This document shows, piece by piece, positions 5,034 to 25,335 of a DNA stretch of 34,298 nucleotides. Positions within the stretch are counted from its first letter, which is position 1; the number at the start of each line of letters is the position of its first letter. The DNA is from Patescibacteria group bacterium (GTDB lineage: Bacteria; Patescibacteriota; Patescibacteriia; Magasanikbacterales; GWA2-37-8). A program made the translations under genes and the position numbers. The notes below the pieces were generated by a model. It was not told the DNA's origin. It saw only the letters and a list, made by a program, of their open reading frames with translations, and ran no database searches. The stretch spans positions 1-34,298 of the forward strand of contig JBAZUP010000003.1 of the NCBI GenBank assembly GCA_041661385.1. The letters run 5' to 3'.

Positions 5034-5077
5034 CAACACTTAAATAACTTCTAAATTTTAACAGGAGAACGCTAAAA

Positions 5078-5111
5078 GCCGTTTTCTATGAAAAAAAACA
5101 TAGAAAACGGC
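5078..5111 (+). promoter_or_regulatory. Perfect 13-bp inverted repeat (GCCGTTTTCTATG-A8-CATAGAAAACGGC) enclosing the first ATG of the ATPase ORF
   Basis: Read directly: left arm 5078-5090, A8 loop 5091-5098, right arm 5099-5111. The ATG at 5088-5090 lies inside the left arm. Confidence 0.6.
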
Positions 5112-6710
5112 AAGCGAAAATTTATGACAAACGAAGCTAAATTTTCTTTAACATATTATGAAGACTTGTCAAAAATATCAATAAACCACGACGTTATTAA
5201 TAAAATATCTCCAGATCAAGCCGTAAAATACCAAATAATACCGATAAATTACAAAGATGGAAAATTAACACTGATTACAGCCGACGGCAATAATTTCAAA
5301 CTCCAAAATGAATTAGAAAAAAAGTTTGGACCAATAACACTAAAAATAACCACACCACAAAACCTGGAAGCAGGCATTAACCGAATTTATGACGACGGTT
5401 ACAAATTCGAACAACGTGACGCACTAAAAGACTTTGAAACACAACAAACAAACACTAAAGCCGCGGCATCCTCGGACCTTGCACAAATGGTAGATGCAAT
5501 AATTCGTGATGCAGCACTAAAAAACGCCTCAGATATTCATATTATACCAACCGAAAAAGACACACGGGTTATGTTTAGAATACATGGCAAGTTTTTAAAT
5601 GTAACCGATATTCACCATATTAAAAGCGGTTCACACGAAAAAGTAGTAAACCGGATAAAAACAATGTGCAAACCATCATTAGACATTTCTAAAAAGGAAA
5701 TATTTCAAGACGGAAGTTTTAGCGTGTCCCTTGATGAAAACAATAATAATAATTTTCACTGCCGAGTTAACGTTGGTCCGACAGCCCTAAAAAACGAAGG
5801 TATTGTTATTCGGATTCACGATTCTAAAAAAGCCGCAAAAAAACCCGACGAACTGGGATTCACTAAAGAAGACCTGATTTGGTTAAAAAAACTACTCAAA
5901 GTTTCCGCAGGCATGATTTTAATCGCCGGACCTACATCAAGCGGTAAATCAACAACCATTCAATCGTTATTAAGTGAATATAACGCTGATGAATTTAAAT
6001 ACAAAATAGTAACAGCAGAAGATCCGGTTGAGGTGAAATGTTCCGACGGAACAATAATTCAAACAGAAATCAAAAAAGCTGAAAATGAAGCAGTTTCCAT
6101 AGGCTATGCCGATATCATAAAAGCTTTTTTACGACAGGATCCGGATATTATCATGGTTGGTGAAATTCGCGATAACTTAGTAGCTACTGCGGCATTGCAA
6201 GCCGCCGAAACCGGCCACGTCCTTTATTCAACAGTCCACGCCAACAGCGCCAGTGCCACAATGGGCAGGATGTTTAATATGGGAATTGAAAAATTTGATT
6301 TACTACAAAATATCGCCTGCATTATCGCCCAAAGGTTAATCGCTACAAATTGCGAATATTGCGCCGAACCACATATTTTAACTGAAGATGAAAAACAATG
6401 GTTAACGCCGCAAGAAATTGAAGACTTAAAAAGCGGAACATTAAAAAGCAGCACAGGTTGTGAAAAGTGCAACTACAAAGGAGTAGGCGGCCGTATAGTA
6501 GTTGCTGAATTCATCCCGTTCAACAATAAAATCAGAGACTACTTCATGCAAGAACACTCAGCAACCGAAGTATTAAAGTTTTTGCAAACAGAAGCAGGAT
6601 TTATCTCAATGTGGGAAAAGGGTATAGAACACGCAAAATCCGGGAAAATAACTATTGCCGAATTAGGTGAGGCGCTGGGCGATGAACGAATCATCGCAGC
6701 AAGTCTCTAA
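5088..6710 (+). CDS. pilB: Type IV pilus / T2SS assembly ATPase (PilB/GspE family)
   Basis: GSPII_E N-domain-like region; Walker A GPTSSGKST; Walker B DPDIIMVGEIRD; His box GHVLYSTVHAN; tetracysteine motif CEYC..CEKC. The start is ambiguous (ATG 5088 lies inside a hairpin; alternative ATG at 5124). Confidence 0.92.
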   Translation: MKKNIENGKRKFMTNEAKFSLTYYEDLSKISINHDVINKISPDQAVKYQIIPINYKDGKLTLITADGNNFKLQNELEKKFGPITLKITTPQNLEAGINRIYDDGYKFEQRDALKDFETQQTNTKAAASSDLAQMVDAIIRDAALKNASDIHIIPTEKDTRVMFRIHGKFLNVTDIHHIKSGSHEKVVNRIKTMCKPSLDISKKEIFQDGSFSVSLDENNNNNFHCRVNVGPTALKNEGIVIRIHDSKKAAKKPDELGFTKEDLIWLKKLLKVSAGMILIAGPTSSGKSTTIQSLLSEYNADEFKYKIVTAEDPVEVKCSDGTIIQTEIKKAENEAVSIGYADIIKAFLRQDPDIIMVGEIRDNLVATAALQAAETGHVLYSTVHANSASATMGRMFNMGIEKFDLLQNIACIIAQRLIATNCEYCAEPHILTEDEKQWLTPQEIEDLKSGTLKSSTGCEKCNYKGVGGRIVVAEFIPFNNKIRDYFMQEHSATEVLKFLQTEAGFISMWEKGIEHAKSGKITIAELGEALGDERIIAASL

Positions 6711-6726
6711 TTCAAAGGAGAATACC

Positions 6727-7815
6727 ATGAACGACAACACCAGCACTATAGAAAAATTAAACAGACTTGTTGCTAGCAACCCAAGCAACGAAGAATGGTT
6801 TTTATTTTTCACCAATCTGCATGCGTTTCACAGAAGTGGGATGGGATTATCGATAGCGCTTGATACCATTGCCGCAGAATCTACAAACCTGAAATTAAAA
6901 GAATGCCTTTTTTCAATGGCAGTAATGATTAAAGACGAAGGAATACAACTAGCGGAAGCTATGGAACGACAAAAAATCTTTCCAACGCTGGCAGTATTCA
7001 CCATCCGCGCCGGTGAAAAAAGCGGCAATTTAGAAAAAGCAATGGAAGAATTAACCCAACAAATTGAACGACAAGGAAACATTACGCAAAAAATCAAAAC
7101 AGCGCTATTACCTGTTTATATTTCCTACGCGTTTCTTTCAATCGCAGCCGTAATCGTTTTTGCGTTTCTTATTCCAAAATTTCAGGTTATCTACAAAGAA
7201 AGAAACATGGACTTACCGGCATTTACAAAAATGACTTTTGCGGTATTGGACTTTATCAAAAATCAGTGGTATATCATTGCGTTAATCGCTATTGCTATAG
7301 GTTGCGCAATTTATTACATAAAAAAACATAAACAACACTGGTTAGATAAATTATGGCTAAAAACACCGGTAATAAAAAGCTTGGTATATTACCAGCTTCA
7401 ATATCGGATAAGCACAAATTTCGCAATGTTTGCAGCTTCCAACAGCAATCATATTGATACGCTGGAAGAATTAGCCAGTATTTCCGGAAACACAATTGCG
7501 GCAGACGCACTACGAAAAACCGCAATAAAAATTATGAACGGTAATTCGTTGTCCAGCTCAATGAAAGAAAACAACGAAGAAAAAATCTTCGATTACATTC
7601 TGATGAATATGGTAAGAAGCGGCGAAGATAACGGAAGCTTGCCTTATCAACTTGGTATAGCGGCAGAAGTATATCGAAAAAAAGTTTTGGCGATTATTGA
7701 AAATTTTGGAACAAAAATTACCACAGTTACACTTATCCCAATAGCAATTGTATTTGTATTCATTATGGTAAGCCTCTACTACCCGATGCTAATGATCAGC
7801 CAGGTGAAACATTGA
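6727..7815 (+). CDS. pilC: Inner-membrane platform protein (PilC/GspF family)
   Basis: ATG at 6727 lies 6 nt after AAGGAG (6715-6720) and just after the pilB stop. Has GspF-type repeats (FPTLAVFTIRAGEKSGNLEKAMEEL; MNMVRSGEDNGSLPYQL) and 3 TM segments. Confidence 0.85.
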   Translation: MNDNTSTIEKLNRLVASNPSNEEWFLFFTNLHAFHRSGMGLSIALDTIAAESTNLKLKECLFSMAVMIKDEGIQLAEAMERQKIFPTLAVFTIRAGEKSGNLEKAMEELTQQIERQGNITQKIKTALLPVYISYAFLSIAAVIVFAFLIPKFQVIYKERNMDLPAFTKMTFAVLDFIKNQWYIIALIAIAIGCAIYYIKKHKQHWLDKLWLKTPVIKSLVYYQLQYRISTNFAMFAASNSNHIDTLEELASISGNTIAADALRKTAIKIMNGNSLSSSMKENNEEKIFDYILMNMVRSGEDNGSLPYQLGIAAEVYRKKVLAIIENFGTKITTVTLIPIAIVFVFIMVSLYYPMLMISQVKH

Positions 7816-8228
7816 AGCGCGCGGGATTTACGCTTATTGAACTAAGTTTGTGTGCAATTGTAGTAGGAATACTTGTTGCCGGCGGCGTATATGCCTTCAA
7901 ATCAAGCATCGATAGCGCCAGAAACGCCCAGGCAATGACAGTTTGCACACAAATAGCAAGCGCAATAAGTCAATATAAATACGAAAACAAAGCATATCCT
8001 GCTACGCTGGCAAATTTATTAACAGTTAGCCCAAAATCAGGAAACGCTTATCTCAGCGGACTGCCAGCAGCCGACCCCTGGGGAACAACAATTGAATCCT
8101 ATGGCTATTTATACAGAGTGAACAACAATGTTTTCATGGTGTTTAGTTACGGACAAGACAAAATAATACAAAGCTCTTCCACGCCGCCAACTATAAGCGG
8201 CGATGACGTCGGCGTAGTAAGCAAATAA
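7812..8228 (+). CDS. GspG-like pseudopilin/pilin
   Basis: Prepilin signal KRAG|FTLIELSL with Glu at +5. C-terminal DPWGTTIESYGYLYRVNNNVFMVFSYGQDK matches the T2SS GspG signature (DPWG..Y.Y....SxGxD). The TTG start overlaps the pilC stop. Confidence 0.8.
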   Translation: MKRAGFTLIELSLCAIVVGILVAGGVYAFKSSIDSARNAQAMTVCTQIASAISQYKYENKAYPATLANLLTVSPKSGNAYLSGLPAADPWGTTIESYGYLYRVNNNVFMVFSYGQDKIIQSSSTPPTISGDDVGVVSK

Positions 8229-8533
8229 CCCTAATCTCACACCCCCGCTGAAGCTTTGCAGCTCAAGTCCCCTTTGAAGCTTTAAAACCCTTTCAATCGC
8301 AACAGGAGCGTCCTGTTAACGATATATCACACACCAATCAAACGATGTACATCAAACAGCTAGCCCAACGATTAGGCCAATCAGCGGGCAAAACGAAAAA
8401 AGGAGAGATTTTATTGGAAGATTATCCCAACACAAAACGTTATAACAATTTTCCCGTTAACTAAAGGAGGCACACAATATAACAATTTTGAGTGCATCAC
8501 CACAAAAAATCTAAAAATCGAAAGAGGTAAAAA

Positions 8534-8956
8534 ATGCAACTATTCAATAAAATGCTGGCTAAAAAACGTTCAGGTTTCACAATGATCGAGTTAACAATCG
8601 TAATGATTATCCTGGCAATCTTGATTGGTGGCGGTATCTACGCCATGAACGCACAATCCGATAACGCAAAAAACACGATTACCGTCCAGGATTTGGATTT
8701 GCTCGGTGGCGCATGCGGACAATATGCCGCATTCTCCAAAGACGGCAAACCACCTGTATCGCTATATGATGTAGTAACCGGAGTAACAGCCACAAACAGC
8801 GTAACCGGCAAAGCATCAGGACCATTGGTAGCTAATTCAAAATGGACAAGTGCTGCAACAATGGTAGACGGTTGGGGAACTGCATTTACCTATGATGCAA
8901 GCGCACGTACAATTACCAGCGCTGGTAACGGAACGCCGATAGTTAAAAGCTTCTAA
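8534..8956 (+). CDS. Major pilin/pseudopilin, paralogue 1
   Basis: Strong RBS AAAGAGG. Prepilin signal KKRSG|FTMIELTIVMIILAIL with Glu at +5. DGWG..F.YD C-terminal motif. Preceded by a 305-nt leader and followed by a hairpin. Confidence 0.85.
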   Translation: MQLFNKMLAKKRSGFTMIELTIVMIILAILIGGGIYAMNAQSDNAKNTITVQDLDLLGGACGQYAAFSKDGKPPVSLYDVVTGVTATNSVTGKASGPLVANSKWTSAATMVDGWGTAFTYDASARTITSAGNGTPIVKSF

Positions 8957-8975
8957 TCCAAACTTTTCACAAATA

Positions 8976-9002
8976 AGCGTGGCGGCATTAACTCGCCACG
9001 CT
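8976..9002 (+). terminator. Stem-loop after pilin 1 (AGCGTGGCG-9 nt-CGCCACGCT), no U-tract
   Basis: 9-bp perfect stem read directly. It lacks a T-run, so it may be a partial terminator or mRNA stabiliser rather than a canonical intrinsic terminator. Confidence 0.4.
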
Positions 9003-9040
9003 CCTTAACCATAATTCGAAATTAAAAAATAGGAGAGCAA

Positions 9041-9466
9041 ATGACAATATTCAATAAAATGCTGACTAAAAAACGTTCAGGTTTCACAATGATCGAGTTA
9101 ACAATCGTAATGATTATCCTGGCAATTTTGATTGGTGGCGGTATCTATGCTATGAACGCTCAATCCGATAACGCAAAAAACACAATTACCGTCCAGGATT
9201 TGGATTTGCTCGGTGGCGCATGCGGACAATATGCCGCATTCTCCAAAGACGGCAAACCACCTGTATCAATATTTGACCTATTAACCGGAGTAACGGCCGG
9301 AAATAGCGTAACCGGCAAAGCATCAGGACCGTTGGTAGCTAACTCAAAATGGACAAGTGCTGCAACAATGGTAGATGGTTGGGGTAACGCCTTCGTTTAT
9401 GATGCAGCAGCACGCACCATTACCAGTACTAATAACGGCGGCACGGCAATAGTTAAAGGATTCTAA
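9041..9466 (+). CDS. Major pilin/pseudopilin, paralogue 2
   Basis: RBS TAGGAGAG. Residues 4-76 differ from paralogue 1 only at residue 9 (Ala vs Thr). About 15 substitutions overall, mostly in the C-terminal part. Confidence 0.85.
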   Translation: MTIFNKMLTKKRSGFTMIELTIVMIILAILIGGGIYAMNAQSDNAKNTITVQDLDLLGGACGQYAAFSKDGKPPVSIFDLLTGVTAGNSVTGKASGPLVANSKWTSAATMVDGWGNAFVYDAAARTITSTNNGGTAIVKGF

Positions 9467-9477
9467 TTAAATCAATA

Positions 9478-9504
9478 ATGCGTGGCGGTAAACCCGCCAC
9501 GCAT
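9478..9504 (+). terminator. Stem-loop after pilin 2 (ATGCGTGGCGG-5 nt-CCGCCACGCAT), no U-tract
   Basis: 11-bp perfect stem read directly. It shares the GCGTGGCGG core with the hairpin after pilin 1. Confidence 0.4.
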
Positions 9505-9534
9505 CTAATACAACCCAAATCAAAAGAGGTTAAC

Positions 9535-10539
9535 ATGCACAAAATTAATTTTAAGAAAAGACATGGCGGCGTATTGTTATTAGAAGCCGCAATCGCCTCA
9601 ATAATACTTGCGCTCATATCCTACGGGGTAGTGCAAGTTAACTCAGCAATGTTCACCGGGCTTAGCGCCAGTGAAAACGGTTACCAAGCCCAATTTTTAG
9701 CTATGGGCAAAGCCAATGAAATAAACGCAACTGCCTATACAGCGCTCACGGGGTTACCACGTGCGGCAATATCCGGAACAAGCTTCGAACGCGAAGTAAT
9801 AGTAGGCGCAGAAACCGACATAGGCGGGGGCGTATTACAAAAAAATGTAAATGTAAATGTATACACACCTGGAGTAGCAACGCCCACCTACTCCCTGTTA
9901 TTGCAGCCAACCAATAAAGGCACAGCAGCAAACGCAGTACCAATGGGTACAATAGTAATGTGGTCTGGTTCATCAATACCAGCCGGGTGGCAAGTATGCA
10001 ACGGAACCAACGGCACACCAGATATGCGCAACAGATTCCCAATCGGCGCTGGCGAAAGAATGGTAGGAGTCAGCTATGGCACAAGTTGGGTTATTCCGGC
10101 CCAAACTGTTTCAACCTACGGGCATCAACATACTGCAACAACTTCAATGACTGATACAAACCACAATCATTATGTTGATTTATCAGGAAGCACACTAGGC
10201 CATATATTAACAATACCCGAAATGCCCAGTCATAATCATGCAATGCCTATAACAAACGAAGGCAAATTTGGCGGTGGATGGCCAACAGGGGGATCCCAAT
10301 CTCGATTATCTTATAACGCTACCGAATACGCTGGCGGCAGTGGTGGTGTTACACAACCACACTCCCACCCCCTCAACGGAACCGTAGTATCCCGAAGACA
10401 AGACGAAAGTCCGCTTAACAACGGCCACGCCCACGCCCACAACTTAACCACTACCGCCGATTACCACAACCACACCACCTCGGCGCATCAATTCAACCCT
10501 CCACTAACCGCCATATATTTCATCATGAAAATGAGTTAA
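9535..10539 (+). CDS. Minor pilin-like protein fused to a phage tail-collar / HxH-rich fibre-like domain
   Basis: ATG at 9535 after AAAGAGG; the track start at 9478 lies in the hairpin. Prepilin signal KRHGG|VLLLEAAIA with Glu at +5. GTIVMWSGSSIPAGWQVCNGTNGTPDMRNRFPIGAG and LTIPEMPSHNH resemble the PF07484/COG4675 signature. Six HxH sites in the C-terminal third. Confidence 0.75.
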   Translation: MHKINFKKRHGGVLLLEAAIASIILALISYGVVQVNSAMFTGLSASENGYQAQFLAMGKANEINATAYTALTGLPRAAISGTSFEREVIVGAETDIGGGVLQKNVNVNVYTPGVATPTYSLLLQPTNKGTAANAVPMGTIVMWSGSSIPAGWQVCNGTNGTPDMRNRFPIGAGERMVGVSYGTSWVIPAQTVSTYGHQHTATTSMTDTNHNHYVDLSGSTLGHILTIPEMPSHNHAMPITNEGKFGGGWPTGGSQSRLSYNATEYAGGSGGVTQPHSHPLNGTVVSRRQDESPLNNGHAHAHNLTTTADYHNHTTSAHQFNPPLTAIYFIMKMS

Positions 10540-10541
10540 TT

Positions 10542-10934
10542 ATGCTTAAAAAAAGAAACGGTACATCGTTCGTCGAATTATCTATCTACATAATCATATT
10601 AACATTAATACTAACCGGTTCTGTTGCGGTTATCCGTAACCCAACACAAATAGCCGATGATGCCGATCTAAAAAACACTTTAATGGTACTAGATATGGCG
10701 CTAGCGAAATATCAAGAAACACATTTAAAAAACTTACCAGAAAACTCGGATTGGAAAACAAAACTAACCGAATTAAAATACATTGACGATAATCTATTCG
10801 ATAAATACACTAACGCCGGAATAAGTTTCAATTATACAAAACTAATTATTACCGGAAATGTTCAAAAATATACCTTGTCAGTAACAAATAAACAGGGAAT
10901 AACGCTCACCTCAATCGGTAGTTATATTCCTTAA
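10542..10934 (+). CDS. Minor pilin/pseudopilin
   Basis: Prepilin signal KKRNG|TSFVELSIYIIILTL with Glu at +5. Small 130-aa protein starting 2 nt after the preceding stop. Confidence 0.65.
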   Translation: MLKKRNGTSFVELSIYIIILTLILTGSVAVIRNPTQIADDADLKNTLMVLDMALAKYQETHLKNLPENSDWKTKLTELKYIDDNLFDKYTNAGISFNYTKLIITGNVQKYTLSVTNKQGITLTSIGSYIP

Positions 10935-10941
10935 GGAAATT

Positions 10942-11442
10942 ATGTTTACATTAACTATAATCGCAAAAATCGCGATCGCAATTTATTTGCTCGTAATTGC
11001 TTACATAGACTATAAAACCATGACAATCGACGACAAAATGGTATTAATCGGCGTTATTACAATAACGCCGATATACCTGATTACCAACAATTTTGACTGG
11101 CGTTACTCGCTTTTCGGAGCAATACTCGCCTTAATCTGCACCGGAACAACCTATCTAACCGCTAAACTACTCTTAAAAAAACCAGGCTTCGGACTAGGCG
11201 ACGTAACGCTATCGATACTGATCGGAATAATCGTCGGCTGGAAATGCTTTATCTTAGTGTTTTTCTTAGCGCACTTCATCCACATGGCGTTTTATTTAAT
11301 AATAATCCTGATAAAAAGAAAAAAATTCAAAGCAACCGACACACTGCCGTTCGCGCCAGCTTTCGTAACAGCAACAATAATTAACTTAACAATGACACAG
11401 GGAATATACCCGGTTTTCGAACGTATAATATTATCAAAATAA
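10942..11442 (+). CDS. pilD: Prepilin peptidase, A24 family, minimal form without the N-terminal methyltransferase/Cys-rich domain
   Basis: 166-aa polytopic membrane protein with the two Asp motifs AYIDYKTMTIDD and GFGLGDVTLSILIG. Last gene of the pilus set. Confidence 0.75.
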   Translation: MFTLTIIAKIAIAIYLLVIAYIDYKTMTIDDKMVLIGVITITPIYLITNNFDWRYSLFGAILALICTGTTYLTAKLLLKKPGFGLGDVTLSILIGIIVGWKCFILVFFLAHFIHMAFYLIIILIKRKKFKATDTLPFAPAFVTATIINLTMTQGIYPVFERIILSK

Positions 11443-12115: not shown

Positions 12116-15100
12116 ATGTTCACTCAAAGCTCAAAAACAGTAAGTATAATCTTGCTGATCGTATTCCTGTTCACCCAATTCGCCGGGGCAGCCGCTAACA
12201 ACGAAATACCAATGGCCAATACCAGCACCCCTGCGACAAACGCCTCCGGTGTTCCTGCGGCAAACAACAGTGTTCAAAATTCCATCACCGCCGGGAACAA
12301 CCTGATGAACTACTACATATCACAATGGCTAACCGGTGGACCAGCCTGGTTAAAACGCATTCAAGTCTCCGGAAGTTTCGAAAACAACCAGGCAATTTGG
12401 CAAGCCAGTACTATTCAGCCAATATTTAATTACGACGAAAGCCTGGAAGATGTCTTGTTCTGGCAAGCCAGCTACGCCAGCTTAAACAATACCGGAAACA
12501 TCGGTTTAGGTTTCCGCGATTTATCCGACAGCCACAAATCAATTTACGGCATCAACGCCTTCTACGATCATCAATTCACCGTAACCGCGCTGGACGGCTC
12601 TAACGCCGGCGCACACCAACGTGTAGGATTAGGCCTGGAATGGTTCTACGGACCGCTGGAAGCCCGCGCCAACGCCTATTACGGCATAAGCAACGACGTC
12701 TTCCTTGGCAACTCTGGTGATTGGGCCTATTGGGAACGTGTAATGAACGGATTTGACGCTTCATTAATCACTAATATGTCCTTCGTGTCCGCACCCTGGC
12801 TAAAACTCGGTGTCGTCGGCTCGAATTACTTGGCAACCCAGGCAATGTTAGGTATTGCCAACCCCAACGTGTCAAATATCGCCGCTGTTGCAAGTTTGCA
12901 AATATTCCCGCAACTAAGCATCAACGCCGCCTATAATATGCAAAACACCGGCGCCAACAACGCTACAATCGGCTTTGCCTTCAATCTGTTAGCGCCGCCG
13001 GTACCGGCAATGCTTTGTGGCAACGAAATCATCAACGATAACGCGTCGAACGATATCAGCTACAAAATGCTGCAACAAGTACAACGCAACAATACCATTC
13101 AAACAGAGCGATATACACTGTCCCGTGTCGGCGACGTAAATATAACAGTAATGGCCGGAACTACGCCGGTTTCCGACGCACTGGTAACGATTTATGACAA
13201 CAACAACGTCCAGGTAGCTCAATCGAGCAGCGGCGTTAGCGGCGTCTATAATTTCGGACACCTTATTGCCGGAACAAATTACCAGGCAACAGTAACAAAA
13301 CAACCCTATGACAACGCCGCGGCTAATTTTACCGTCGCAGTTGGCAAAACTACCGCCGTTACAATCAATTTAGAAACTACCGCAGTAGCGATAACGGTTG
13401 TATATACCAACCAGGCGCCAGTAGCCAACCAAACAGTTACGTTAACAAACAGCAGCGGCAACGCAATATTAACCGCCGTTACCAATACCAGCGGCGTTGC
13501 TAATTTTTATCAAGTAACCCCGGGCACTTATAATATTAGCGCAGTCATCAATGGCGCAGCTTATGGCGGCTTAAAAACTAATTTTGCCGTAGTCAAAGGC
13601 TTAACGCAAACCGAATTAATCATCGGGCCGCAACAACCGGGAGCCGGAAACGCCAATATTACTTTAACCGATAATAACGACAATCCAATCTCCGGAGTTA
13701 CGGTACAAATATATTCCGGTATCGACCAAAGCCAAACCGCAATAAGTAACGGAAGCGGTATCGCCGCATTTACCAACTTGCCGCTTGGCAGCTATATTTT
13801 TTCAGCAGTTTCTTCCGGACTGGTACGCTACTCAAACAGCGTAGCAATCAGCAACGGAACGACTACTACCAGCGCCATAAGTTTTTCCACAAGCACTTTC
13901 GGGAACATCAATCTAACAGTGAAAACTAATGATGGAACACCGATCGGCAATGTAAACACTTATTTAACGACATTAAGCGGACAACAGACCGGCTATAGCG
14001 CCACTAGCAATACCAGCGGCGTAGCCGCATATACCGGCGTCCCGGCTGATTCATATATTGCCAACGCAACCTATGAAAACAATCAATATACCAGTAACCC
14101 GTTTAGTGTTTCAGCGGCAACGGCCGCAACTCCGTCAATCACCGTAGGCGCAACCGCGCCGCTGTACGTTATCGTAAAAGATAACGGTGTAGCCGTAACC
14201 GGAACAGTTGTTAACCTGCAACCAGGAAATATGCAAACAGTTACCGACAGTAACGGCAACGCCTATTTTAACAACGCCCCAATCGGAATATTAACCGCTT
14301 CAGTATATACCCAGGTTGTTACCCAAAAAACAGTTAATGTCACTTACGGACAAACAAATTTCAGCACAATCAACTTAAATACTAAAGCAAGTGCCGAAAT
14401 CACCGTACTAGATATTAACAGCGTACCAATAGTTAACAGCACCGTGCAAATGACTGGAACAAATAACGTTTCAGCAACTACCAACGCCAGCGGTATCGCC
14501 GCCTTTACGGGCTTAACCGCCGTTAACCAGCAACAACTATACGCCGTAATCAACGGTAATGTAATATCCGGACAACTAAACTTAATGGCCGGGGCTGTTA
14601 ACCAATACGTCCTGAAAGCCGGAACCGGCAACCTGCAAACTCAAGTGGTTGACGCATCTGGCGCCGGAATTAACGGCGTGCTGGTAAACGCAACAAACTT
14701 CAATAATTCCGCAACAATAAGCGGAACAACCGACAGCGCCGGAAACGTCAATATCCCGCTGGCCAGCGGTCTCTGGACCGTAGCCGCAATATATAACGGC
14801 AACGCCTATGCTTATAGCAACAACGGCGATACCAACGTCGAAATACTGGCTAATTCGGTAAAAACCATTCAAATAACCGCAGCCGCAATTTCACCGTCCG
14901 TAAAAGTTGTCGATAATGCCGGTGCAACCGTATTCGGCGCGTTAGTATATTACAACAGCGAAAAGAAAATGGTAACAACGAATATGTCCGGCGTCGCCCA
15001 ATTAACCGGTGCAACGAACGGAACCCAGCAAATACTGGTCTATCCAAACGGACGAACACAATCTTATCATTACACTTATAACACCAGCCTGCAAAACGGC

Positions 15101-16132
15101 GCAGCAATCCAAACGTTGCAAAACAAAACCGGAACAATGCGAATACATGTAATTGATAGCAACGGCAATCCAATCATTGGAACTAACGTCCAAATAACCA
15201 ACCCGGTGGATGGCAACGAAGCTGGTCAGTATGCCGCAACAAACAGCGCTGGTTATGCTGATTTTATCGTACCTATCGGCTGCACCTACACTGCAATAGC
15301 TAGTAACGGTACCGAGCCCTTTTACCCAACAGTTAATCCGGTTATTACCAACAACGCAATTACTGATACCTATATAAAAGTATCAACGCTGCCAACGGCA
15401 AATGTAACAGTTACCGTTAATGGAACGCCAGTGTCGGGAGCAACAGTTACCCCTTACCTGAATTCAAAGCAAATACAAAACGGAACGACAAACGGGAACG
15501 GCGTAGTAAGCTTCGCAAATTTAGAAACTGGTAATTACGAATTCCGAACATTTTTTACGTATAACGGCAACAGTTATATCACAAGCGTACAAGCAACGTT
15601 GATAAATGGTACATATCCGATAACTATAAATTGTTCAACAACCGCTACCGGCACTGCAACAGTACTTGTACTTGACGCACACAACACGCCGTTGTCCGGA
15701 GTAGTTGTTAGTGGCGGCACCGGGCCAATCATTACAACAAACGCCCAAGGTTATGCAACAATAACAAACCTTCAAACTGGCAACGCCACTTTCTCTGTTC
15801 AAAATTATGGAACAAATATAAATATTTACCACGTTACGACAAACATCGTTGCTAACCAAACAACCAATGTAACTTTAAAAGAAGCTGTTGGCACAATAAA
15901 CGTCACAGTTTACGACGTTAACAATAATCCAGTAGCCGGAGCCACGGTTGAGACCTATGAAAACAACAGCACATACAGAACAGTGGTTACAAACGCCAGC
16001 GGCGTAGCATCCTTCGAAAACCTGCCAATTTGGGAAAAATTCAACTTCATTAATGGCGTTTCGCCAACCCTCTGGGGCGTAACAGTCTACGACGGACAAA
16101 CAACCCAAGTTGACATGCACGCAGTGCAATAA
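12116..16132 (+). CDS. Inverse autotransporter (intimin/invasin-type beta-barrel) adhesin with about 12 tandem CarboxypepD_reg-like domains
   Basis: Signal peptide ..FTQFAGA|AANN. N-terminal barrel with the alternating aromatic pattern GLGFRDL, GINAFYDH, GLGLEWFYG, ARANAYYG, GFDASL, typical of the PF11924 inverse-autotransporter beta domain. The passenger is built of ~80-90-aa Asn/Thr/Val-rich repeats. RBS AAGGAG at 12101. Confidence 0.85.
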   Translation: MFTQSSKTVSIILLIVFLFTQFAGAAANNEIPMANTSTPATNASGVPAANNSVQNSITAGNNLMNYYISQWLTGGPAWLKRIQVSGSFENNQAIWQASTIQPIFNYDESLEDVLFWQASYASLNNTGNIGLGFRDLSDSHKSIYGINAFYDHQFTVTALDGSNAGAHQRVGLGLEWFYGPLEARANAYYGISNDVFLGNSGDWAYWERVMNGFDASLITNMSFVSAPWLKLGVVGSNYLATQAMLGIANPNVSNIAAVASLQIFPQLSINAAYNMQNTGANNATIGFAFNLLAPPVPAMLCGNEIINDNASNDISYKMLQQVQRNNTIQTERYTLSRVGDVNITVMAGTTPVSDALVTIYDNNNVQVAQSSSGVSGVYNFGHLIAGTNYQATVTKQPYDNAAANFTVAVGKTTAVTINLETTAVAITVVYTNQAPVANQTVTLTNSSGNAILTAVTNTSGVANFYQVTPGTYNISAVINGAAYGGLKTNFAVVKGLTQTELIIGPQQPGAGNANITLTDNNDNPISGVTVQIYSGIDQSQTAISNGSGIAAFTNLPLGSYIFSAVSSGLVRYSNSVAISNGTTTTSAISFSTSTFGNINLTVKTNDGTPIGNVNTYLTTLSGQQTGYSATSNTSGVAAYTGVPADSYIANATYENNQYTSNPFSVSAATAATPSITVGATAPLYVIVKDNGVAVTGTVVNLQPGNMQTVTDSNGNAYFNNAPIGILTASVYTQVVTQKTVNVTYGQTNFSTINLNTKASAEITVLDINSVPIVNSTVQMTGTNNVSATTNASGIAAFTGLTAVNQQQLYAVINGNVISGQLNLMAGAVNQYVLKAGTGNLQTQVVDASGAGINGVLVNATNFNNSATISGTTDSAGNVNIPLASGLWTVAAIYNGNAYAYSNNGDTNVEILANSVKTIQITAAAISPSVKVVDNAGATVFGALVYYNSEKKMVTTNMSGVAQLTGATNGTQQILVYPNGRTQSYHYTYNTSLQNGAAIQTLQNKTGTMRIHVIDSNGNPIIGTNVQITNPVDGNEAGQYAATNSAGYADFIVPIGCTYTAIASNGTEPFYPTVNPVITNNAITDTYIKVSTLPTANVTVTVNGTPVSGATVTPYLNSKQIQNGTTNGNGVVSFANLETGNYEFRTFFTYNGNSYITSVQATLINGTYPITINCSTTATGTATVLVLDAHNTPLSGVVVSGGTGPIITTNAQGYATITNLQTGNATFSVQNYGTNINIYHVTTNIVANQTTNVTLKEAVGTINVTVYDVNNNPVAGATVETYENNSTYRTVVTNASGVASFENLPIWEKFNFINGVSPTLWGVTVYDGQTTQVDMHAVQ
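13133..16129 (+). repeat. About 12 tandem degenerate domain repeats (~80-90 codons each) in the adhesin passenger
   Basis: Recurrent pattern (I/V)x(V/L)x(V/D)xxxxP(I/V)xGAxVx...T(T/N)xxGxAxFxxLxxGxYxxxA, for example TVTDSNGNAYFNNAPIG, TNASGIAAFTGL, TNASGVASFENLP. Confidence 0.75.
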
Positions 16133-16141
16133 CCAATCACA

Positions 16142-16179
16142 AGCCAAGCCTGCTCGTGTTTACACGGGTGGGTTTGGCT
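16142..16179 (+). terminator. Hairpin downstream of the adhesin gene (AGCCAAGCC...GGTTTGGCT with inner CTCGTG/CACGGG), no U-tract
   Basis: Read directly; contains G-U pairs. Followed by GGGAG and the ATG at 16193. Confidence 0.35.
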
Positions 16180-16192
16180 CCCGGGAGTAATC

Positions 16193-16516
16193 ATGTATGA
16201 TTCAGAAATAAAATTAAAAATTTCCGGCAATGAAACATTAGTACATTACCATTCAAAGTATACAAATGATATTGCTGCTAAAATGATTGCCGAAAAATTT
16301 ATAAATGAAAACCCTCACTACGCAGGATATGAAGAAATTAACATACTTTCCGTTAATAAAGACGATGCAGAAATAGAATATATACCACGCAGCATCATTA
16401 TGCGCATAAGAAGAATAACTGGATATTTATCAGTAATTGATAACTTTAATAGTGCAAAAAAAGCCGAAGAAAAAGACAGAACTAGTCATTATATTGAAAC
16501 TAATATTACTAACTAA
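16193..16516 (+). CDS. Stand-alone protein with a NrdD-type C-terminal glycyl-radical motif
   Basis: RIRRITGYLSVIDNFNSAKKAEEKDRTSH aligns with the E. coli NrdD C-terminus as I recall it (RRVCGYLGSPDARPFNAGKQEEVKRRVKH), including the radical Gly in xGYL. It lacks an RNR barrel and the Zn-Cys motif. Confidence 0.6.
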   Translation: MYDSEIKLKISGNETLVHYHSKYTNDIAAKMIAEKFINENPHYAGYEEINILSVNKDDAEIEYIPRSIIMRIRRITGYLSVIDNFNSAKKAEEKDRTSHYIETNITN

Positions 16517-17046: not shown

Positions 17047-17988
17047 ATGTCAACATTAGGAAATAGATTAAAATTACTAAGAGAAGCAAAGAATTGTACA
17101 CAAAAAACAATAGCGGATCGTTTAGGTATATGCAGAGAAGGTTACACTTATTATGAACTAAACAATCGCGAACCTAACATCAAAACCATAATAAAATTAG
17201 CGGAATTTTTCAATTGCACTACTGATTACTTATTGTGTAATAGCAATAACTCTAATATGCCATTTTTAAAAAACAATAATATTGATACAAATATAACACT
17301 AGGAAACCGACTAAAAAAATTACGCTATAAACTAGATAAAAATAAAAACCAAGCTGAAACAGCACGGAAACTAGGCATATCGCCAATAAATTATAATCGC
17401 TTCGAACACGATGTAGCGGAACCAAGCTATAAAATTCTGTTAAATATAGCAAAATTTCATAATTGTACAACAGATGATCTATTCGGCATAACAAACACAA
17501 TCAACAATATTATCGTTATTGAACCAGAACCAAAAAATAACAATAACATAATCAAAATACTCCGTAAAAAGAAAAATGTGACACAAAAACAACTTGCGAA
17601 AGAAATCTCCGTAACGAAGGGAACTGTTTCCAGTTGGGAAAACAACCAAAGCGTTCCACCTTTGGTCTATCTTGAAAGACTTTCAAAATACTTTTCTGTC
17701 ACAGCGGATCTACTACTTGAAATAATAAACACATCCACTGATGTAAAAAACAACATAATTAAATCACTTCGACAAAAAAAATACTTAACACAAAAACAAC
17801 TTGCGAAAGAAATTTCTACAACACAGGCTATAACAACACAGGCTATGATTTCTAAATGGGAACTCGGCCAAAATAAAATACCTGCAGTACAGCTTAAAAA
17901 ACTCGCAAAATATTTTTCCGTCACAACAACCTATCTACTTAAACAACTTAAACAACCAACAAACCCTAATAGGAGCAACAATGTTTAA
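17047..17988 (+). CDS. XRE-family DNA-binding protein with four tandem HTH (HTH_3) domains
   Basis: Four ~60-aa units, each with the pattern LGxRLKxLRxxKxxTQxxLAxxLxxSxxxxxxxExxxxxPxxxxLxxLAKxFxxxxDYLL. Units 3 and 4 share a long near-identical nucleotide stretch (ACACAAAAACAACTTGCGAAAGAAAT). Confidence 0.85.
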   Translation: MSTLGNRLKLLREAKNCTQKTIADRLGICREGYTYYELNNREPNIKTIIKLAEFFNCTTDYLLCNSNNSNMPFLKNNNIDTNITLGNRLKKLRYKLDKNKNQAETARKLGISPINYNRFEHDVAEPSYKILLNIAKFHNCTTDDLFGITNTINNIIVIEPEPKNNNNIIKILRKKKNVTQKQLAKEISVTKGTVSSWENNQSVPPLVYLERLSKYFSVTADLLLEIINTSTDVKNNIIKSLRQKKYLTQKQLAKEISTTQAITTQAMISKWELGQNKIPAVQLKKLAKYFSVTTTYLLKQLKQPTNPNRSNNV

Positions 17989-20644: not shown

Positions 20645-20878
20645 ATGAATACGAAAGTGCAACAATGGGGTGGTAGCCAGGGTGTTAGAATTCCAAAAAA
20701 CATTCTGGAAACAATTGGATTGCACATCAACGATTTAGTTGAAATTGTGGCAGGAAAAGATAGTTTAATAATCCGAAAGCCAAAAAAATATGATATCAAA
20801 ACATTATTCGCCCACTACAAAGGTGAGTACCAACCAGAAGATGTTTGGGGATCATCTGTAGGACAAGAGGCCTTATAA
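20645..20878 (+). CDS. mazE: MazE-like antitoxin (AbrB/SpoVT fold)
   Basis: VQQWGGSQGVRIPKNILETIGLHINDLVEIV matches the MazE swapped-hairpin motif. RBS GGTGGAGG. The stop lies 2 nt before the toxin ATG. Confidence 0.85.
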   Translation: MNTKVQQWGGSQGVRIPKNILETIGLHINDLVEIVAGKDSLIIRKPKKYDIKTLFAHYKGEYQPEDVWGSSVGQEAL

Positions 20879-20880
20879 CT

Positions 20881-21216
20881 ATGGTTAAGAAAGCGCGTCC
20901 AAAACAGGGTGACATATTTTATGTTGATCTGGAACCAAAAAAAGGACATGAACAAGGGGAAACACGCCCGGTAATAGTCATAAGCAATAACGACTATAAC
21001 AACCGAGTACCACTTCCAATTGTTTGCCCTGTTACTACAACAGACAATGGATTTCCATTGCACCTTGCGTTACCAAGTGGTTTAAAAACTACCGGATATG
21101 CTATGATAGAACATTGCCGTACTATTGATTACAAAGCAAGAGGATGGCGATATGTCGAATCCGCACCAATACCATTTGTTGAAGACGTAAATCAGTTATT
21201 ATTTTCTTGCTTATAA
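20881..21216 (+). CDS. mazF: MazF/PemK-family endoribonuclease toxin
   Basis: ATG at 20881 (MVKKARPKQGDIFYVDLEPKKGHEQGETRPVIVISNN..PIVCPVTT) is the canonical MazF N-terminus. The longer track ORF from 20845 overlaps mazE and is unlikely. Confidence 0.9.
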   Translation: MVKKARPKQGDIFYVDLEPKKGHEQGETRPVIVISNNDYNNRVPLPIVCPVTTTDNGFPLHLALPSGLKTTGYAMIEHCRTIDYKARGWRYVESAPIPFVEDVNQLLFSCL

Positions 21217-21399: not shown

Positions 21400-23805
21400 A
21401 TGTTAAAAACAACGCAGTACGAACTCAACCAAATTATATCAAGACACACCAATCAAATGCCGGCAGATTTATCCAACCGCGATTTATCCGGATTAAATTT
21501 CAACCGTGCAAAAATACCCGGTGCAAATTTTGAAGGCAGCGACCTGCGCAGAGCCAATATGTACAACTGCGACATATCTAAAGCCAACATGAATAACACG
21601 CTCATGTACGGCATAAATATGTGGTACGCCAACGCCAAAGAAGTAAGCTTAAACAACGCAAATCTAAACTACGTAAAATTAAACGAAGTAAACCTCGAAG
21701 GATTTACCGGAATAGACGTTAAATTAAAAAACACATCTTTTGAAAACTGTGATTTAGATAATGGTACATTAAAAGCCGATCTGCGTGACATTGTTCTAAA
21801 TCGAAACAATAGCGCAGCTAATTTAACATTGGCCGGATCAACAATTTCCTCAGCCGACGTTGCAAGTGGAATTTTTAAAGCATTAGACGTAAATGACAAA
21901 GATGTTAAACACGCCGAAAGCACTCGAAATAACATCCTGGATATTATCAAAAATGAAATTCATGAATTCAAACAAGGACGCCCGTCACCCACAACCGGAA
22001 AGGTTATTTCCCCGGAATATATCAAAGAATTTATACTAAACATCGAAGCCAAACATTCAAACCGTTATGAATCCAGCGGCTACAACGATTTAAACAATAT
22101 AAGCAACGGTGATTACCTGGAAGCAAAAGAACACCGCGACCTGAACTCCAATCGCGCCGAACAGCGTGGTATTGCCTACGAATTTACAACCGAAGAAAAA
22201 ATTACCGCCGAAAAACTATTAAACCACGTCAAAGAACTAGTAAAAGATTTGCCGGATAAACAAGATAAATGGTATGCCGAGCGTGTAAACGGCAAAACAC
22301 AATATTTTCGTTCGAAAGATGAAGCAAAAGCATATAAAGCTGAACACGAACCTAAAGAAAGATTATTAACCAGAGAAGAAATTATGGCCGGATTAAATGC
22401 CGCGAGAATGCGTAAATTAGGCGCTAATTTACGCCCAATTCCCGAAGACATAGCAATTGCCATAAAAGAACATCGCTTATGGTTAAACAGTAAAGAAACG
22501 CAAGGAAAGCAACTTGAATTAAAAAACATAGACCTAAGAAATACTGATTTATCGAAAATCAACTTTTTTTCCGCAAAAATTATCGATTGTGATCTGTCTG
22601 GATGCAAACTTGATTCTACTAATTTCCGAAAAGCAGACGTTTCAGGAACAAAATTTATTAAAAGCATGGGTATAAATTGTGATTTTACTGATACGAAAAT
22701 GATTAACATCAACGCATCGATGTCGAACTTTTCTAATTCAGTATTCAGAAATGCAATTATACCAAAAGGTGATTTTACCCAAAGCAAATTAACTAACTGT
22801 AATTTCAAACACGTCCAGGCAACCGGTATTGACTTTAGCTTCAGCGCTATAGACAAAGTTGAATTTAATAAAGCGTCACTCCCTTATATGAAATTTGAAA
22901 ATACCAATGTAAGAGAAAGTGTTTTCAACCAAGCTTCGATGGAATATGGAACGACCGAAAGCAGCAATTTTAAAGACTCAAAATTCATTGAAACAAATAT
23001 GAGTAATAATCAGATTTTAGAATCAAATTACGAGTATTGCAAAATGACAGAAATAAACATGCGTTATGGTGATTATGAAAAATCAAGTTTTGTAAATTGC
23101 GAATTTATTAATGCAAAAATTGACGAAGTAAACCTAAATGAAATTTCTTTTATCGATTCAAACTTTGAAAAAGCCAGTTTCTACAATACTTCATTAGATA
23201 AAACCGAATTAACTGGCTCGAATATTGAAGGAATAAATCTAACCAACAACTTTGAACGCGAAACGGAACCGTCGTTAACAAACAGAACGTTAGATAATTT
23301 TAGATTAAACAACGACAAAAATATCATTGACCAACCCGAATTAATTCAAAACACAATAAACATTGCTGATGAAAAAAACCAGGCAATGATCGAGCAAATG
23401 AAAGAAATCGACAATAACAAAGCAGATTTAAAAATGTTTAAAGCTTTCGTTAACGTATACAACAATCAAGAAACTGCGTTAACAGCAGAGGGCGAAGCAG
23501 AACGCGTATCAAGATTAACAGTATACAAACAAAGAGTATTAGATACCGAAACTAAAATTAAACAAGCCCGGGAAAAAATAACCACTTTACAAACCGAAAT
23601 ATCCCAACTGCCGACATTCGAAATTACCAAAACTCCGGACAAAGAAATCCAAAACAGTAAGCTCCATTTAGTAGAAAAAAATCAAACTATCAAAACAATC
23701 GAAAAAACACAAACTAAACTCGAAAACACTAAATCAAAAGAAGAAAAACAACTATCAACCACCACAAAAACTGTCACTAAAAAAACCAAAGGAATGGAAC
23801 GTTAA
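21400..23805 (+). CDS. Large pentapeptide-repeat protein (two repeat blocks, central unique region, C-terminal coiled-coil and Lys/Thr-rich tail)
   Basis: A(D/N)LxX-type pentads, for example DLSGLNFNRAKIPGANFEGSDLRRANMYNCDISKANMNN (aa ~25-150), and again in aa ~375-620 (NIDLRNTDLSKINFFSAKIIDCDLSGCKLDSTNFRKADVSG...). RBS AAAGGAG. Confidence 0.9.
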   Translation: MLKTTQYELNQIISRHTNQMPADLSNRDLSGLNFNRAKIPGANFEGSDLRRANMYNCDISKANMNNTLMYGINMWYANAKEVSLNNANLNYVKLNEVNLEGFTGIDVKLKNTSFENCDLDNGTLKADLRDIVLNRNNSAANLTLAGSTISSADVASGIFKALDVNDKDVKHAESTRNNILDIIKNEIHEFKQGRPSPTTGKVISPEYIKEFILNIEAKHSNRYESSGYNDLNNISNGDYLEAKEHRDLNSNRAEQRGIAYEFTTEEKITAEKLLNHVKELVKDLPDKQDKWYAERVNGKTQYFRSKDEAKAYKAEHEPKERLLTREEIMAGLNAARMRKLGANLRPIPEDIAIAIKEHRLWLNSKETQGKQLELKNIDLRNTDLSKINFFSAKIIDCDLSGCKLDSTNFRKADVSGTKFIKSMGINCDFTDTKMININASMSNFSNSVFRNAIIPKGDFTQSKLTNCNFKHVQATGIDFSFSAIDKVEFNKASLPYMKFENTNVRESVFNQASMEYGTTESSNFKDSKFIETNMSNNQILESNYEYCKMTEINMRYGDYEKSSFVNCEFINAKIDEVNLNEISFIDSNFEKASFYNTSLDKTELTGSNIEGINLTNNFERETEPSLTNRTLDNFRLNNDKNIIDQPELIQNTINIADEKNQAMIEQMKEIDNNKADLKMFKAFVNVYNNQETALTAEGEAERVSRLTVYKQRVLDTETKIKQAREKITTLQTEISQLPTFEITKTPDKEIQNSKLHLVEKNQTIKTIEKTQTKLENTKSKEEKQLSTTTKTVTKKTKGMER

Positions 23806-23859
23806 TCCAAACTACTGAGCACTTTCTTTTTCAGAAGTTAAATATAGTTGGAGGTTGAC

Positions 23860-25335
23860 ATGACCGAAGAAAACCGAAAAATATTAAACAAATTACTTAA
23901 CGCGGAAACCAGAGATTTAACAATTTTAAGTGACAAATTAAGAAATGATAAAGAATTTATGTTGGAAATGGTTAAAGATGGTTGGCCGACAATCGATTTT
24001 ATTGGCAACAATTTATTAAATGATCGCGATATATTTCTTGAAGCAGTTAAACAAAATGGAATGTTGTTAGAAATGGCTGGCGAAGAAATTTGTAGCGATA
24101 AAGAAATAGTAATGAAAGCAGTAAATAACGTTGGATATGCACTGGCTTTGGCAAACCCTGCACTCCAAAACGATCGGGATATTGTCTCGGCAGCTGTCAC
24201 TAAAAACGGTGCTGCATTACAATACGCAAGTGATAATCTACGTGCCGATCCAATAATTATCGAATTAGCAGGTGAAAACGGCAAAGATTATACAATCACA
24301 ATGCCAACAGATGAAGAAATAAAACGCGAAGCAAAAGCTGAATTATTATACGAAATAAATTTCACCGAACACTACGGACTGTCCTTAAAAGACCAACCAA
24401 ACGAATGGAAAAACGACAAAGAAATAGTTATAGCATTTGTTGCACAAAACGGCTACGAATTAGAATATGCAAGCACGGAACTACGCAATAACCGTGAAAT
24501 CGTAATGGCAGCAATCAACGAAAACGGCGCCGCACTTAAATATGCAAGTACTGAACTCAAAAACGATAAAACCATAGCAATGACAGCAGTTTCAAACGAC
24601 GGTTACGCTCTAGAATTTGCAAGTCCAGAATTACGTAACAACCATGAAGTAGTTTTAACTGCTATAACTGGAAGCGAATTTGCATTAGAATATGCAAGTT
24701 TAAAAGTAACTATAGATATAGTAAAACACAACGGTTGGAACTTAGAATACGTAAACGACGCATTTAAAAACAACCACGATGTTGTTATGGCAGCAGTCTC
24801 TAGATATGGATATGCTCTTAAATATGCCAGCCCTGAGCTCCAAAATGACCGTAATATTGTTCTACGAGCAGTAGCGCAAGATGGCACATCGCTAGAATTC
24901 GCAAGCCAGGAGCTCCGCAACGATCACGACGTTGTTATGACGGCTGTAACAAAAAACGGTTACGCATTAAAATACGTAAATCCAACACTTCAAAATGACC
25001 GTGAAATAGTCTTGGCGGCAGTTAAACAAAATGGATTTGCGTTTGAATTTGTAAACGACCAATTGAAAACTGATCCTGAAGTAATTCGTACAGTTGATAA
25101 CGATATGGCGATTCAACAATATGAAGCAACAGAACTTGGTATAGAAAAAGACAATAATTATATTAATAAACCAATTTCTGACATACCCCAATCCCATAAA
25201 CCCTACCAACCACCATCCGTTGAGCAACTAGCCGCGTTAAAACAATCCTCTGAGCAAAAAATGGGGACAACAAGCATAACAAAAGAACCTGCGCAACGAA
25301 TAATAAACCAACAATCAAAAGGATTAAGCCGCTAA
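23860..25335 (+). CDS. DUF4116-type repeat protein (about 12 tandem ~30-aa repeats)
   Basis: ATG at 23860, 5 nt after GGAGG. Recurrent unit L(R/K)ND(R/K)EIV(L/M)(A/T)AV(K/T)QNGYAL(K/E)YAS, as in Pfam DUF4116. Confidence 0.8.
   Translation: MTEENRKILNKLLNAETRDLTILSDKLRNDKEFMLEMVKDGWPTIDFIGNNLLNDRDIFLEAVKQNGMLLEMAGEEICSDKEIVMKAVNNVGYALALANPALQNDRDIVSAAVTKNGAALQYASDNLRADPIIIELAGENGKDYTITMPTDEEIKREAKAELLYEINFTEHYGLSLKDQPNEWKNDKEIVIAFVAQNGYELEYASTELRNNREIVMAAINENGAALKYASTELKNDKTIAMTAVSNDGYALEFASPELRNNHEVVLTAITGSEFALEYASLKVTIDIVKHNGWNLEYVNDAFKNNHDVVMAAVSRYGYALKYASPELQNDRNIVLRAVAQDGTSLEFASQELRNDHDVVMTAVTKNGYALKYVNPTLQNDREIVLAAVKQNGFAFEFVNDQLKTDPEVIRTVDNDMAIQQYEATELGIEKDNNYINKPISDIPQSHKPYQPPSVEQLAALKQSSEQKMGTTSITKEPAQRIINQQSKGLSR

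Follow-up and report, generated by a model that had tools for sequence, protein, structure and literature searches.

Oxygen cuts glycyl radical enzymes irreversibly at the radical glycine. Class III ribonucleotide reductase (RNR), whose catalytic protein is NrdD, is the essential source of deoxyribonucleoside triphosphates (dNTPs) for many strict anaerobes, including gut and rumen bacteria. For pyruvate formate-lyase (PFL), the autonomous cofactors GrcA/YfiD of E. coli and Y06I (vs.6) of phage T4 rescue the oxygen-cleaved enzyme. They are small stand-alone copies of the C-terminal radical loop of the large enzyme, and their genes usually lie apart from the enzyme gene. A review of June 2026 lists glycyl-radical spare parts only for formate lyases and, like a paper from 2021, regards them as validated for PFL only and as undetermined for other glycyl radical enzymes. 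In the literature searched, in which subscription journals were partly covered and absence is not proof, no NrdD spare part, no NrdD-type stand-alone radical protein and no split NrdD is described. This fits a sequence-only reading of the locus presented here, which knew of no characterised module of this kind for class III RNR. The locus is an open reading frame (ORF) for a protein of 107 amino acids (aa), named P0001, in a stretch of 34,298 nucleotides (nt) assigned to a Patescibacteria group bacterium (assembly GCA_041661385.1, contig JBAZUP010000003.1, positions 1 to 34,298; hereafter the window). Like GrcA/YfiD and Y06I, P0001 is a small stand-alone copy of a C-terminal radical loop. The loop of GrcA/YfiD is of the PFL type (PF01228), whereas that of P0001 and its relatives is of the NrdD type (C-terminus of PF13597). 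We predict, as the reading we favour with some reserve, that P0001 is a trans-acting radical module for the class III RNR of its host, carried as an accessory gene of a conjugative plasmid. The gene and its parts are as follows.

16193..16516, plus strand: gene of P0001, a 107-aa stand-alone NrdD-type glycyl-radical protein (from the ORF list, the sequence and the matches to NrdD C-termini)
16183..16187, plus strand: Shine-Dalgarno sequence GGGAG, 5 nt 5' of the ATG (read from the sequence)
16193..16387, plus strand: N-terminal region, residues 1-65, cysteine-free and in place of the zinc ribbon of NrdD
16388..16498, plus strand: glycyl-radical segment, residues 66-102 (PRSIIMRIRRITGYLSVIDNFNSAKKAEEKDRTSHYIE), with the Gly77/Tyr78 loop and the subsequent helix
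16421..16423, plus strand: GGA codon of Gly77, the predicted radical site (from invariance and structure alignment)

Similarity of P0001 to the C-terminus of NrdD

The reading frame begins with ATG at 16193 and ends with TAA at 16514-16516. Residues 71-99 of the protein are RIRRITGYLSVIDNFNSAKKAEEKDRTSH. The Pfam family NRDD (PF13597) matches P0001 with an E-value of 4.4e-6 and 26.1 bits (gathering score 26.2), aa 69-99 corresponding to positions 533-562 of the 562 profile positions. Further matches were obtained with the NCBIfam models NF005497 (E 6.3e-9, aa 66-100 on model positions 709-744 of 746) and TIGR02487 (E 1.2e-7) and with the NrdD-like phrog_487 (E 1.8e-4). All alignments to NrdD models are confined to their last ~30-36 positions, and their scores of 26-35 bits stand against the 326-764 bits required by the curated cut-offs of the NCBIfam NrdD equivalogs. 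In BLASTP, the C-terminus of NrdD from Clostridioides difficile was matched with an E-value of 9e-11 and 44% identity over 61 alignment columns. A Pfam scan of P0001 at E <= 10 reported NRDD only and no match to Gly_radical (PF01228).

P0001 shares the Gly-Tyr loop, the helix and the tail with the C-terminal domain of one-piece NrdD proteins (8P23; T4 1H78/1H7A; T. maritima 4U3E). In contrast to these, it lacks the alpha/beta barrel, the ATP cone and the zinc ribbon, and the region before the loop is unrelated. With only 107 aa there is no barrel with a catalytic cysteine loop, and the protein does not contain a single cysteine and hence no four-cysteine zinc site of the NrdD kind. The sequence-only reading had proposed an NrdD-type C-terminal radical motif that includes the radical glycine and stands without catalytic barrel or zinc-binding cysteines. 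Each of these points is borne out: the alignment to the NrdD C-terminus is significant by PF13597, NCBIfam, BLASTP and the profile comparison by hhalign given below, the PF13597 match lies at the end of the profile, Gly77 aligns with the radical glycine of a solved NrdD structure (see below), and both the sequence and the model matches agree with the missing parts.

The same reading had named a decayed nrdD with flanking remnants as an alternative. This was ruled out, as the flanks consist of intact, unrelated ORFs and tblastn found no other similarity to NrdD or NrdG on about 85% of the contig. An intact gene for a 1,338-aa inverse autotransporter ends 60 nt 5' of the P0001 gene, and an ORF of 148 aa without Pfam match begins 35 nt 3' of it. 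Two NrdD cores, two full NrdD proteins and one NrdG were used as queries, and no further match was found in the window and five more pieces, which together cover about 85% of the 105,912-bp contig.

A widespread family of short proteins with the NrdD-type loop

A single-sequence search with P0001 returned seven short proteins of 85-103 aa with the same loop and without zinc cysteines. A profile built from eight short proteins matched at least 7,997 short proteins at E <= 1e-3 (8,000 candidates scored). Among clusters at 50% identity, 2,562 match the family profile at E <= 1e-3 and 1,444 at E <= 1e-10; the best 150 of these matches are 84-236 aa long and nearly all span almost the whole profile. 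At least 596 loci of the family were found in species-representative genomes. The best 80 genome loci belong to Ruminococcus (including the cultured R. flavefaciens FD-1 and ATCC 19208), Oscillospiraceae, other Clostridia, Coriobacteriia, Erysipelotrichaceae, Selenomonadales and Christensenellales. A member is also encoded in the complete genome of Sporomusa rhizae (SRRS_53790). Neither Pfam nor NCBIfam contains a model dedicated to this ~90-aa family. In the databases its members are named hypothetical protein, or are mislabelled as anaerobic ribonucleoside-triphosphate reductase or its activating protein.

A typical member consists of a beta-strand, a helix and a beta-hairpin, followed by (F/I)xRIRRITGYL(V/S)...(F/W)NxxKxAExxDRxKH. 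AlphaFold2 yields a beta-alpha-beta-beta plus loop topology for such a protein, with a predicted local distance difference test score (pLDDT) of 75. The N-terminus of YfiD, in contrast, is disordered (PMC13450708). The glycine column is invariant throughout the family alignments. Among diverse short representatives the glycine, within ..RRITGY.., is retained in 148 of 148, which answers the question of its conservation among short homologues raised for the sequence-only reading, and a double CxxC upstream occurs in none of the 148. In a Pfam scan of six typical members at E <= 0.01, NRDD was again reported alone, without PF01228. Compared with solved structures, the family profile matches residues 696-739 of the Prevotella copri NrdD (8P23) with an E-value of 1.9e-12, and also the T4 NrdD (1H78). 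The glycine column, i.e. Gly77 in P0001, falls on Gly711 of 8P23 and on the G580A position of 1H78. In the P. copri enzyme, Gly711 carries the radical, and the adjacent Tyr712 is a conserved contact (PMC11226230). The radical domain in the solved NrdD structures is mobile and largely behaves as a rigid body (PMC11226230), which is compatible with a detachable version.

Within the family, the ratio of nonsynonymous to synonymous substitution rates (dN/dS) is ~0.5 in the N-domain and ~0.09 in the loop; these values are crude, with dS near saturation (~1.2), and only qualitative. Foldseek searches of the PDB with N-domain models of P0001 and of a typical member gave no match at E <= 0.001. An HPF-like and an S3-like fold were considered for the N-domain and rejected, as the weak Foldseek matches reflect generic small alpha/beta folds.

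The search with P0001 also returned two proteins of 72 aa, P0008 and P0009, which begin with 'MKKQNVGYGSINHPVDRC...' and retain the zinc-ribbon cysteines in addition to the loop. They appear to be the smaller part of an NrdD that is split at another point, 5' of the zinc ribbon. A piece of 89 aa similar to them was found in locus L115. In two other loci, L002 (6408-7664, Sporomusa rhizae) and L007 (6348-7400, an unrelated metagenomic contig), a protein of the HD-GYP type (HD_5) adjoins the stand-alone small gene; this could be chance or a signalling link.

Members of the family are also carried by mobile elements. Short versions without zinc cysteines are present in about 30 of the best 80 viral-contig loci. 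In L095 a member lies directly 5' of the genes for the small and large terminase subunits, the portal and head morphogenesis. Two unannotated human-gut records named 'Bacteriophage sp.' match 97% and 84% of a typical-member query. None of the 55 matching plasmid-database records reaches a coverage of 80% of the family query, and the plasmid matches that were inspected (small C. difficile 'plasmids', Monoglobus) were rejected as family members, being full-length nrdD. The carriage of the family by phages and, with P0001, by a plasmid parallels the GrcA homologue of phage T4. In all, the distribution of similar short ORFs, which the sequence-only reading had suggested looking at, is that of a large family present in genomes, on viral contigs and on a plasmid.

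P0001 as a divergent member of the family

From sequence comparison, P0001 is classed as a divergent member of this family. With a family profile built without P0001, hhalign aligned residues 52-103, i.e. hairpin and loop, with a probability of 99.3% and an E-value of 4e-20. All 12 invariant columns are kept (R71, R73, R74, I75, T76, G77, Y78, L79, K89, E92, R96 and H99). Pairwise BLASTP alignments with P0013 (residues 17-99) and P0002 (33-100) are colinear. P0001 thus resembles the family in its length class, the absence of zinc cysteines, the invariant loop residues, the preceding beta-hairpin and the stand-alone gene. It differs in that its first ~50 residues are not recognisably homologous, in being plasmid-borne, in having no NrdR site and in its shorter loop. 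This loop is of a 'GYLS-x-x-DNFN' subtype, one residue shorter, which is also found in full-length NrdD proteins of ~670-680 aa (L184, L240, L248) and in L171. Therefore, loop subtypes are common to the small proteins and the enzymes.

AlphaFold2 predicts the N-terminal part of P0001, at low confidence, as strand 7-10, helices 14-22 and 27-39, and strands 46-54 and 59-65, an order similar to that in typical members. Residues 66-86 form the loop and 87-105 a helix, with a block-mean pLDDT of 79-82 over residues 81-100.

The divergence raises the possibility that the plasmid acquired a family member which has since drifted without function, its N-terminal half having diverged beyond recognition. 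Residues 1-69 alone reach an hhalign probability of only 2.5% against the family profile, and residues 1-51 lie outside the profile match. In addition, P0001 reads DRTSH where the family has DRVKH, so that K98 is replaced by serine. No close relative of the whole 107-aa protein was found in phage records or in viral, metagenome and genome collections; the matches there are at the level of the loop and at best cover about residues 52-99. On the other hand, the frame is intact and has a good ribosome-binding site, all 12 invariant positions are kept, and the loop variant matches a subtype of real NrdD proteins. The predicted order of secondary structures resembles that of typical members, and the pairwise alignment is colinear from residue 17. 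Moreover, an identical protein was found on 4 contigs of public assemblies, and its DNA is present in groundwater metagenome runs of two studies. We therefore consider a drifting copy improbable.

Operons with full-length and loop-less NrdD

In 76 of 78 genome loci the small gene is not adjacent to nrdD or nrdG, an arrangement that, like the carriage by mobile elements, is shared with GrcA/YfiD and Y06I. The loci in which the genes do lie together, in genomes and on other contigs, are of three types. In type A (L014, L196), nrdD is full-length, its product having both a zinc ribbon and a loop, and is followed by the small gene and then by nrdG; in L014 an NrdR-like gene lies 3' of nrdG. The 32-residue loop of the small protein in L014 equals that of the adjacent NrdD at the protein level, while 8 of 34 compared codons differ synonymously. 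As the loops are identical despite these synonymous differences, the identity is maintained by selection and not by recent copying. A loop that closely tracks that of the cognate enzyme is also a feature of GrcA/YfiD. In type A operons, the small protein is consistent with a spare part of the GrcA kind.

In type B (L052, L092, L096, L114, L116, L213), NrdD stops directly after the zinc ribbon and has no loop, and the gene of the family protein follows. Similarity to NrdG was found nearby in four of these six loci (L052, L114, L116, L213). The only radical loop seen in type B loci is that on the small protein, and therefore this loop would have to work in trans. A sequencing error can be discarded as the cause of the layout, because L116 and L213 are diverged versions of it. 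Judged from their gene arrangement, the type B operons demonstrate that such a protein can serve as the regular radical subunit. They differ from P0001 in that their small gene is fixed beside the enzyme gene and presumably obligatory, whereas the P0001 gene is unlinked and plasmid-borne. In L052 (3683-6267), the tail of NrdD reads '...VIPRIHCGL*', which looks like the stump of a former loop.

In type C (L208, L221, L225, L245), NrdD is split likewise, and the small ORF is a minimal, loop-only piece of 50-76 aa without N-domain. Such minimal pieces (50-76 aa, '...G-x-G-V-x-F-E-R-I-R-R-I-T-G-Y-L...') were also seen in L131, L160, L167 and L169; some lie 3' of a loop-less nrdD, others alone on viral contigs. 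L111 holds two copies (5396-5833 and 7774-8049), in which the loop is at the N-terminus of longer ORFs of 91 and 145 aa.

That the small gene stands apart from nrdD and nrdG in 76 of the 78 sampled genome loci, and that two members have neighbours of the HD-GYP type, would also suit a different partner. In this case the loop would serve another glycyl radical enzyme or barrel protein, or chemistry of the small protein's own. We regard this as very improbable. The loop is of the NrdD type and not of the PFL type, with NRDD as the only Pfam match, it can be equal to the loop of an adjacent NrdD, and the NrdR sites, which are regarded as RNR-specific (PMC13584703), are enriched upstream of the small genes, as follows.

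NrdR sites upstream of the small genes

NrdR is the dedicated repressor of RNR genes. It binds two boxes of 16 bp, 15-16 bp apart, with conserved C4, A6, A8, T9, T11 and G13, and its sites are regarded as specific for RNR operons (PMC13584703). The 300 nt upstream of each gene were scanned for this published two-box architecture, with no more than one of the 12 core positions mismatched. Sites were found for 27 of 77 chromosomal stand-alone small genes but only for 3 of 993 other ORFs of the same loci (Fisher p 4e-30, odds ratio 178). Full-length nrdD genes in a mixed viral and metagenome set had a site in 8 of 65 cases, and small genes on viral contigs in 0 of 32. Scans with the single-box consensus agree with this enrichment. 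The site-bearing small genes, about a third of the chromosomal members, lie among loci L019-L090. From these predicted sites, chromosomal family members appear to belong to the NrdR regulon, while the copies on mobile elements, including P0001, do not. Sites at the small genes would add a non-enzyme gene to this regulon.

The sequence-only reading had tied the module to class III RNR, and this link is supported at the level of the family by the operon positions, the loop-less NrdD proteins and the enrichment of NrdR boxes. A link to RNR would also exist if P0001 were a decoy or regulator that mimics the NrdD loop, binds NrdG or the NrdD barrel and, instead of providing activity, modulates dNTP synthesis of the host as a radical sink, an activase chaperone or a brake on host replication. 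The conserved loop residues would be needed for binding by a mimic, too, the mobile element has no nrd genes of its own on the ~85% scanned, and P0001 is free of the NrdR control seen in chromosomal members. However, six operons pair a loop-less NrdD with a family protein that has the sole loop, which is sensible only if this loop is catalytically competent. The radical glycine and the next tyrosine are invariant, although a mimic that only binds could tolerate an exchange of glycine for alanine. Furthermore, co-repression with RNR genes by NrdR is more in keeping with a part of the enzyme than with an inhibitor. A decoy role is therefore unlikely.

Predicted function of P0001 and of the family

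For the preferred reading, in which P0001 acts in trans as a radical module, the following course can be proposed. The radical-SAM activase NrdG of the host would recognise the RIRRITGYL loop and abstract a hydrogen from Gly77. The radical loop and the next helix would then enter the alpha/beta barrel of a host NrdD whose own loop has been cleaved by oxygen or is naturally absent. There, the glycyl radical would generate the catalytic thiyl radical, and ribonucleotide reduction could resume. The N-terminal alpha/beta part may serve as a docking handle, replacing the covalent tether via the zinc ribbon of one-piece NrdD. For the plasmid, the benefit would be a secured supply of dNTPs in anaerobic or micro-oxic hosts, just as T4 carries a GrcA homologue for PFL.

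Several observations weigh against this function. Besides the unmatched residues 1-69 and the serine in place of K98 described above, Tyr19 of P0001 sits in the near-invariant glutamate column of the family in a MAFFT alignment, and the overall pLDDT of the AlphaFold2 model is low (65). No NrdR box was found upstream of the P0001 gene, even under relaxed settings, and in a promoter scan around the gene promoter-like matches were not more common than in shuffled sequence. Neither nrdD nor nrdG was found on the ~85% of the plasmid scanned. The PilB/GspE protein of the plasmid has best relatives of only 33-35% identity, which are taxonomically scattered. The zinc site of one-piece NrdD is reported to be necessary for radical generation, and P0001 has none. 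Finally, docking could be hindered by what remains on an oxygen-cleaved NrdD, namely the zinc ribbon and the stump of the loop.

A broader picture is put forward here only tentatively, and we hold it to be rather doubtful as a whole. Class III RNR may be a two-component system in many lineages, with a free cartridge of ~50-110 aa that is activated by NrdG off the enzyme, plugs into the barrel of NrdD and is replaced after cleavage by oxygen. The chromosomal extra copies would be controlled by NrdR, plasmids and phages would carry their own to re-arm the dNTP supply, and the zinc-free N-domain would be a new docking module.

With this family, there is for the first time a concrete spare-part candidate for a glycyl radical enzyme beyond PFL. 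New here are the family with its zinc-free N-domain, its link to NrdR and the copy on a conjugative plasmid. The family is very widespread and linked to NrdR, has cultured carriers (Ruminococcus flavefaciens, Sporomusa rhizae) and occurs in natural operons with loop-less NrdD, which makes the question accessible to standard anaerobic enzymology. If the prediction is true, it would change the understanding of the oxygen tolerance of anaerobes and the view of how plasmids and phages secure the nucleotide supply in their hosts. It would also change RNR annotation, in which these short genes at present bear the label hypothetical or, mistakenly, NrdD or NrdG.

Plasmid context of the P0001 gene

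The contig carrying P0001 corresponds to k141_1704730 of ENA ERZ27249449, and its gene content was assembled via exact-protein look-ups. Judged by this gene content, it is a conjugative plasmid. On one side of the window are genes for a Rep_3 initiator, ParA, a beta clamp, a primase, a MobA/MobL relaxase, a topoisomerase and a secretion system of the Trb/VirB type, of which VirB3, B4, B8, B9, B10 and B11, TrbC, TrbL and the coupling protein are present. The suggestion of the sequence-only reading that the module is possibly carried by a mobile element agrees with the Rep_3, ParA, relaxase and Trb/VirB genes of the contig.

The conjugation genes are followed by an IscB-like gene, a type IV pilus operon with a secretin, an autotransporter adhesin and then P0001. 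After P0001 come a protein with a four-fold XRE domain, a lytic transglycosylase, an M48 peptidase, MazEF and proteins with pentapeptide and DUF4116 repeats. Further along the plasmid are genes for a single-strand DNA-binding protein (SSB), TnpB, a LexA-like repressor, RadC, DUF4942, an NAD ligase and a resolvase. The presence of a secretin and an inverse autotransporter suggests a plasmid host with an outer membrane, as far as gene content can indicate this, so that the contig may belong to an organism outside the Patescibacteria. The other features of the window are as follows.

3-914: IscB-like gene with RRXRR and HNH, encoding 425 aa in the full contig and flanked by the conjugation genes and the pilus operon
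911-11442: operon similar to type IV pilus and type II secretion systems, with a secretin and a pilin with a phage tail-collar motif
12116-16132: gene of the 1,338-aa inverse autotransporter, with CarboxypepD_reg repeats
16142..16179, no strand assigned: imperfect inverted repeat AGCCAA...TTGGCT with an inner CGTG/CACG pair (read from the sequence)
17047-17988: one protein with four HTH_3/XRE domains
20645-21216: MazE/MazF (PemK) pair
21400-25335: pentapeptide-repeat protein (801 aa) and, after it, a protein with 12 DUF4116 repeats (495 aa)
27132-28214: full-length TnpB (OrfB_IS605 and Cas12f1-like TNB)

The inverted repeat lies between the stop codon of the autotransporter gene and the ribosome-binding site of P0001. 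The only report of a terminator scan near P0001 was a minus-strand hairpin at 16138-16158. The G+C content is ~46% in the inverse autotransporter gene and ~30% in the genes 3' of it. The pilus operon and the inverse autotransporter probably equip the plasmid for mating or adhesion. The IscB-like gene and the full-length TnpB are located on the same plasmid.

The plasmid record L254/L256 (~4.9-34.6 kb) contains a long series of about 50 small co-directional ORFs without Pfam matches, together with RadC, DUF4942, DUF4326 and an NAD-dependent DNA ligase. Leading or establishment regions of conjugative plasmids have a similar make-up.

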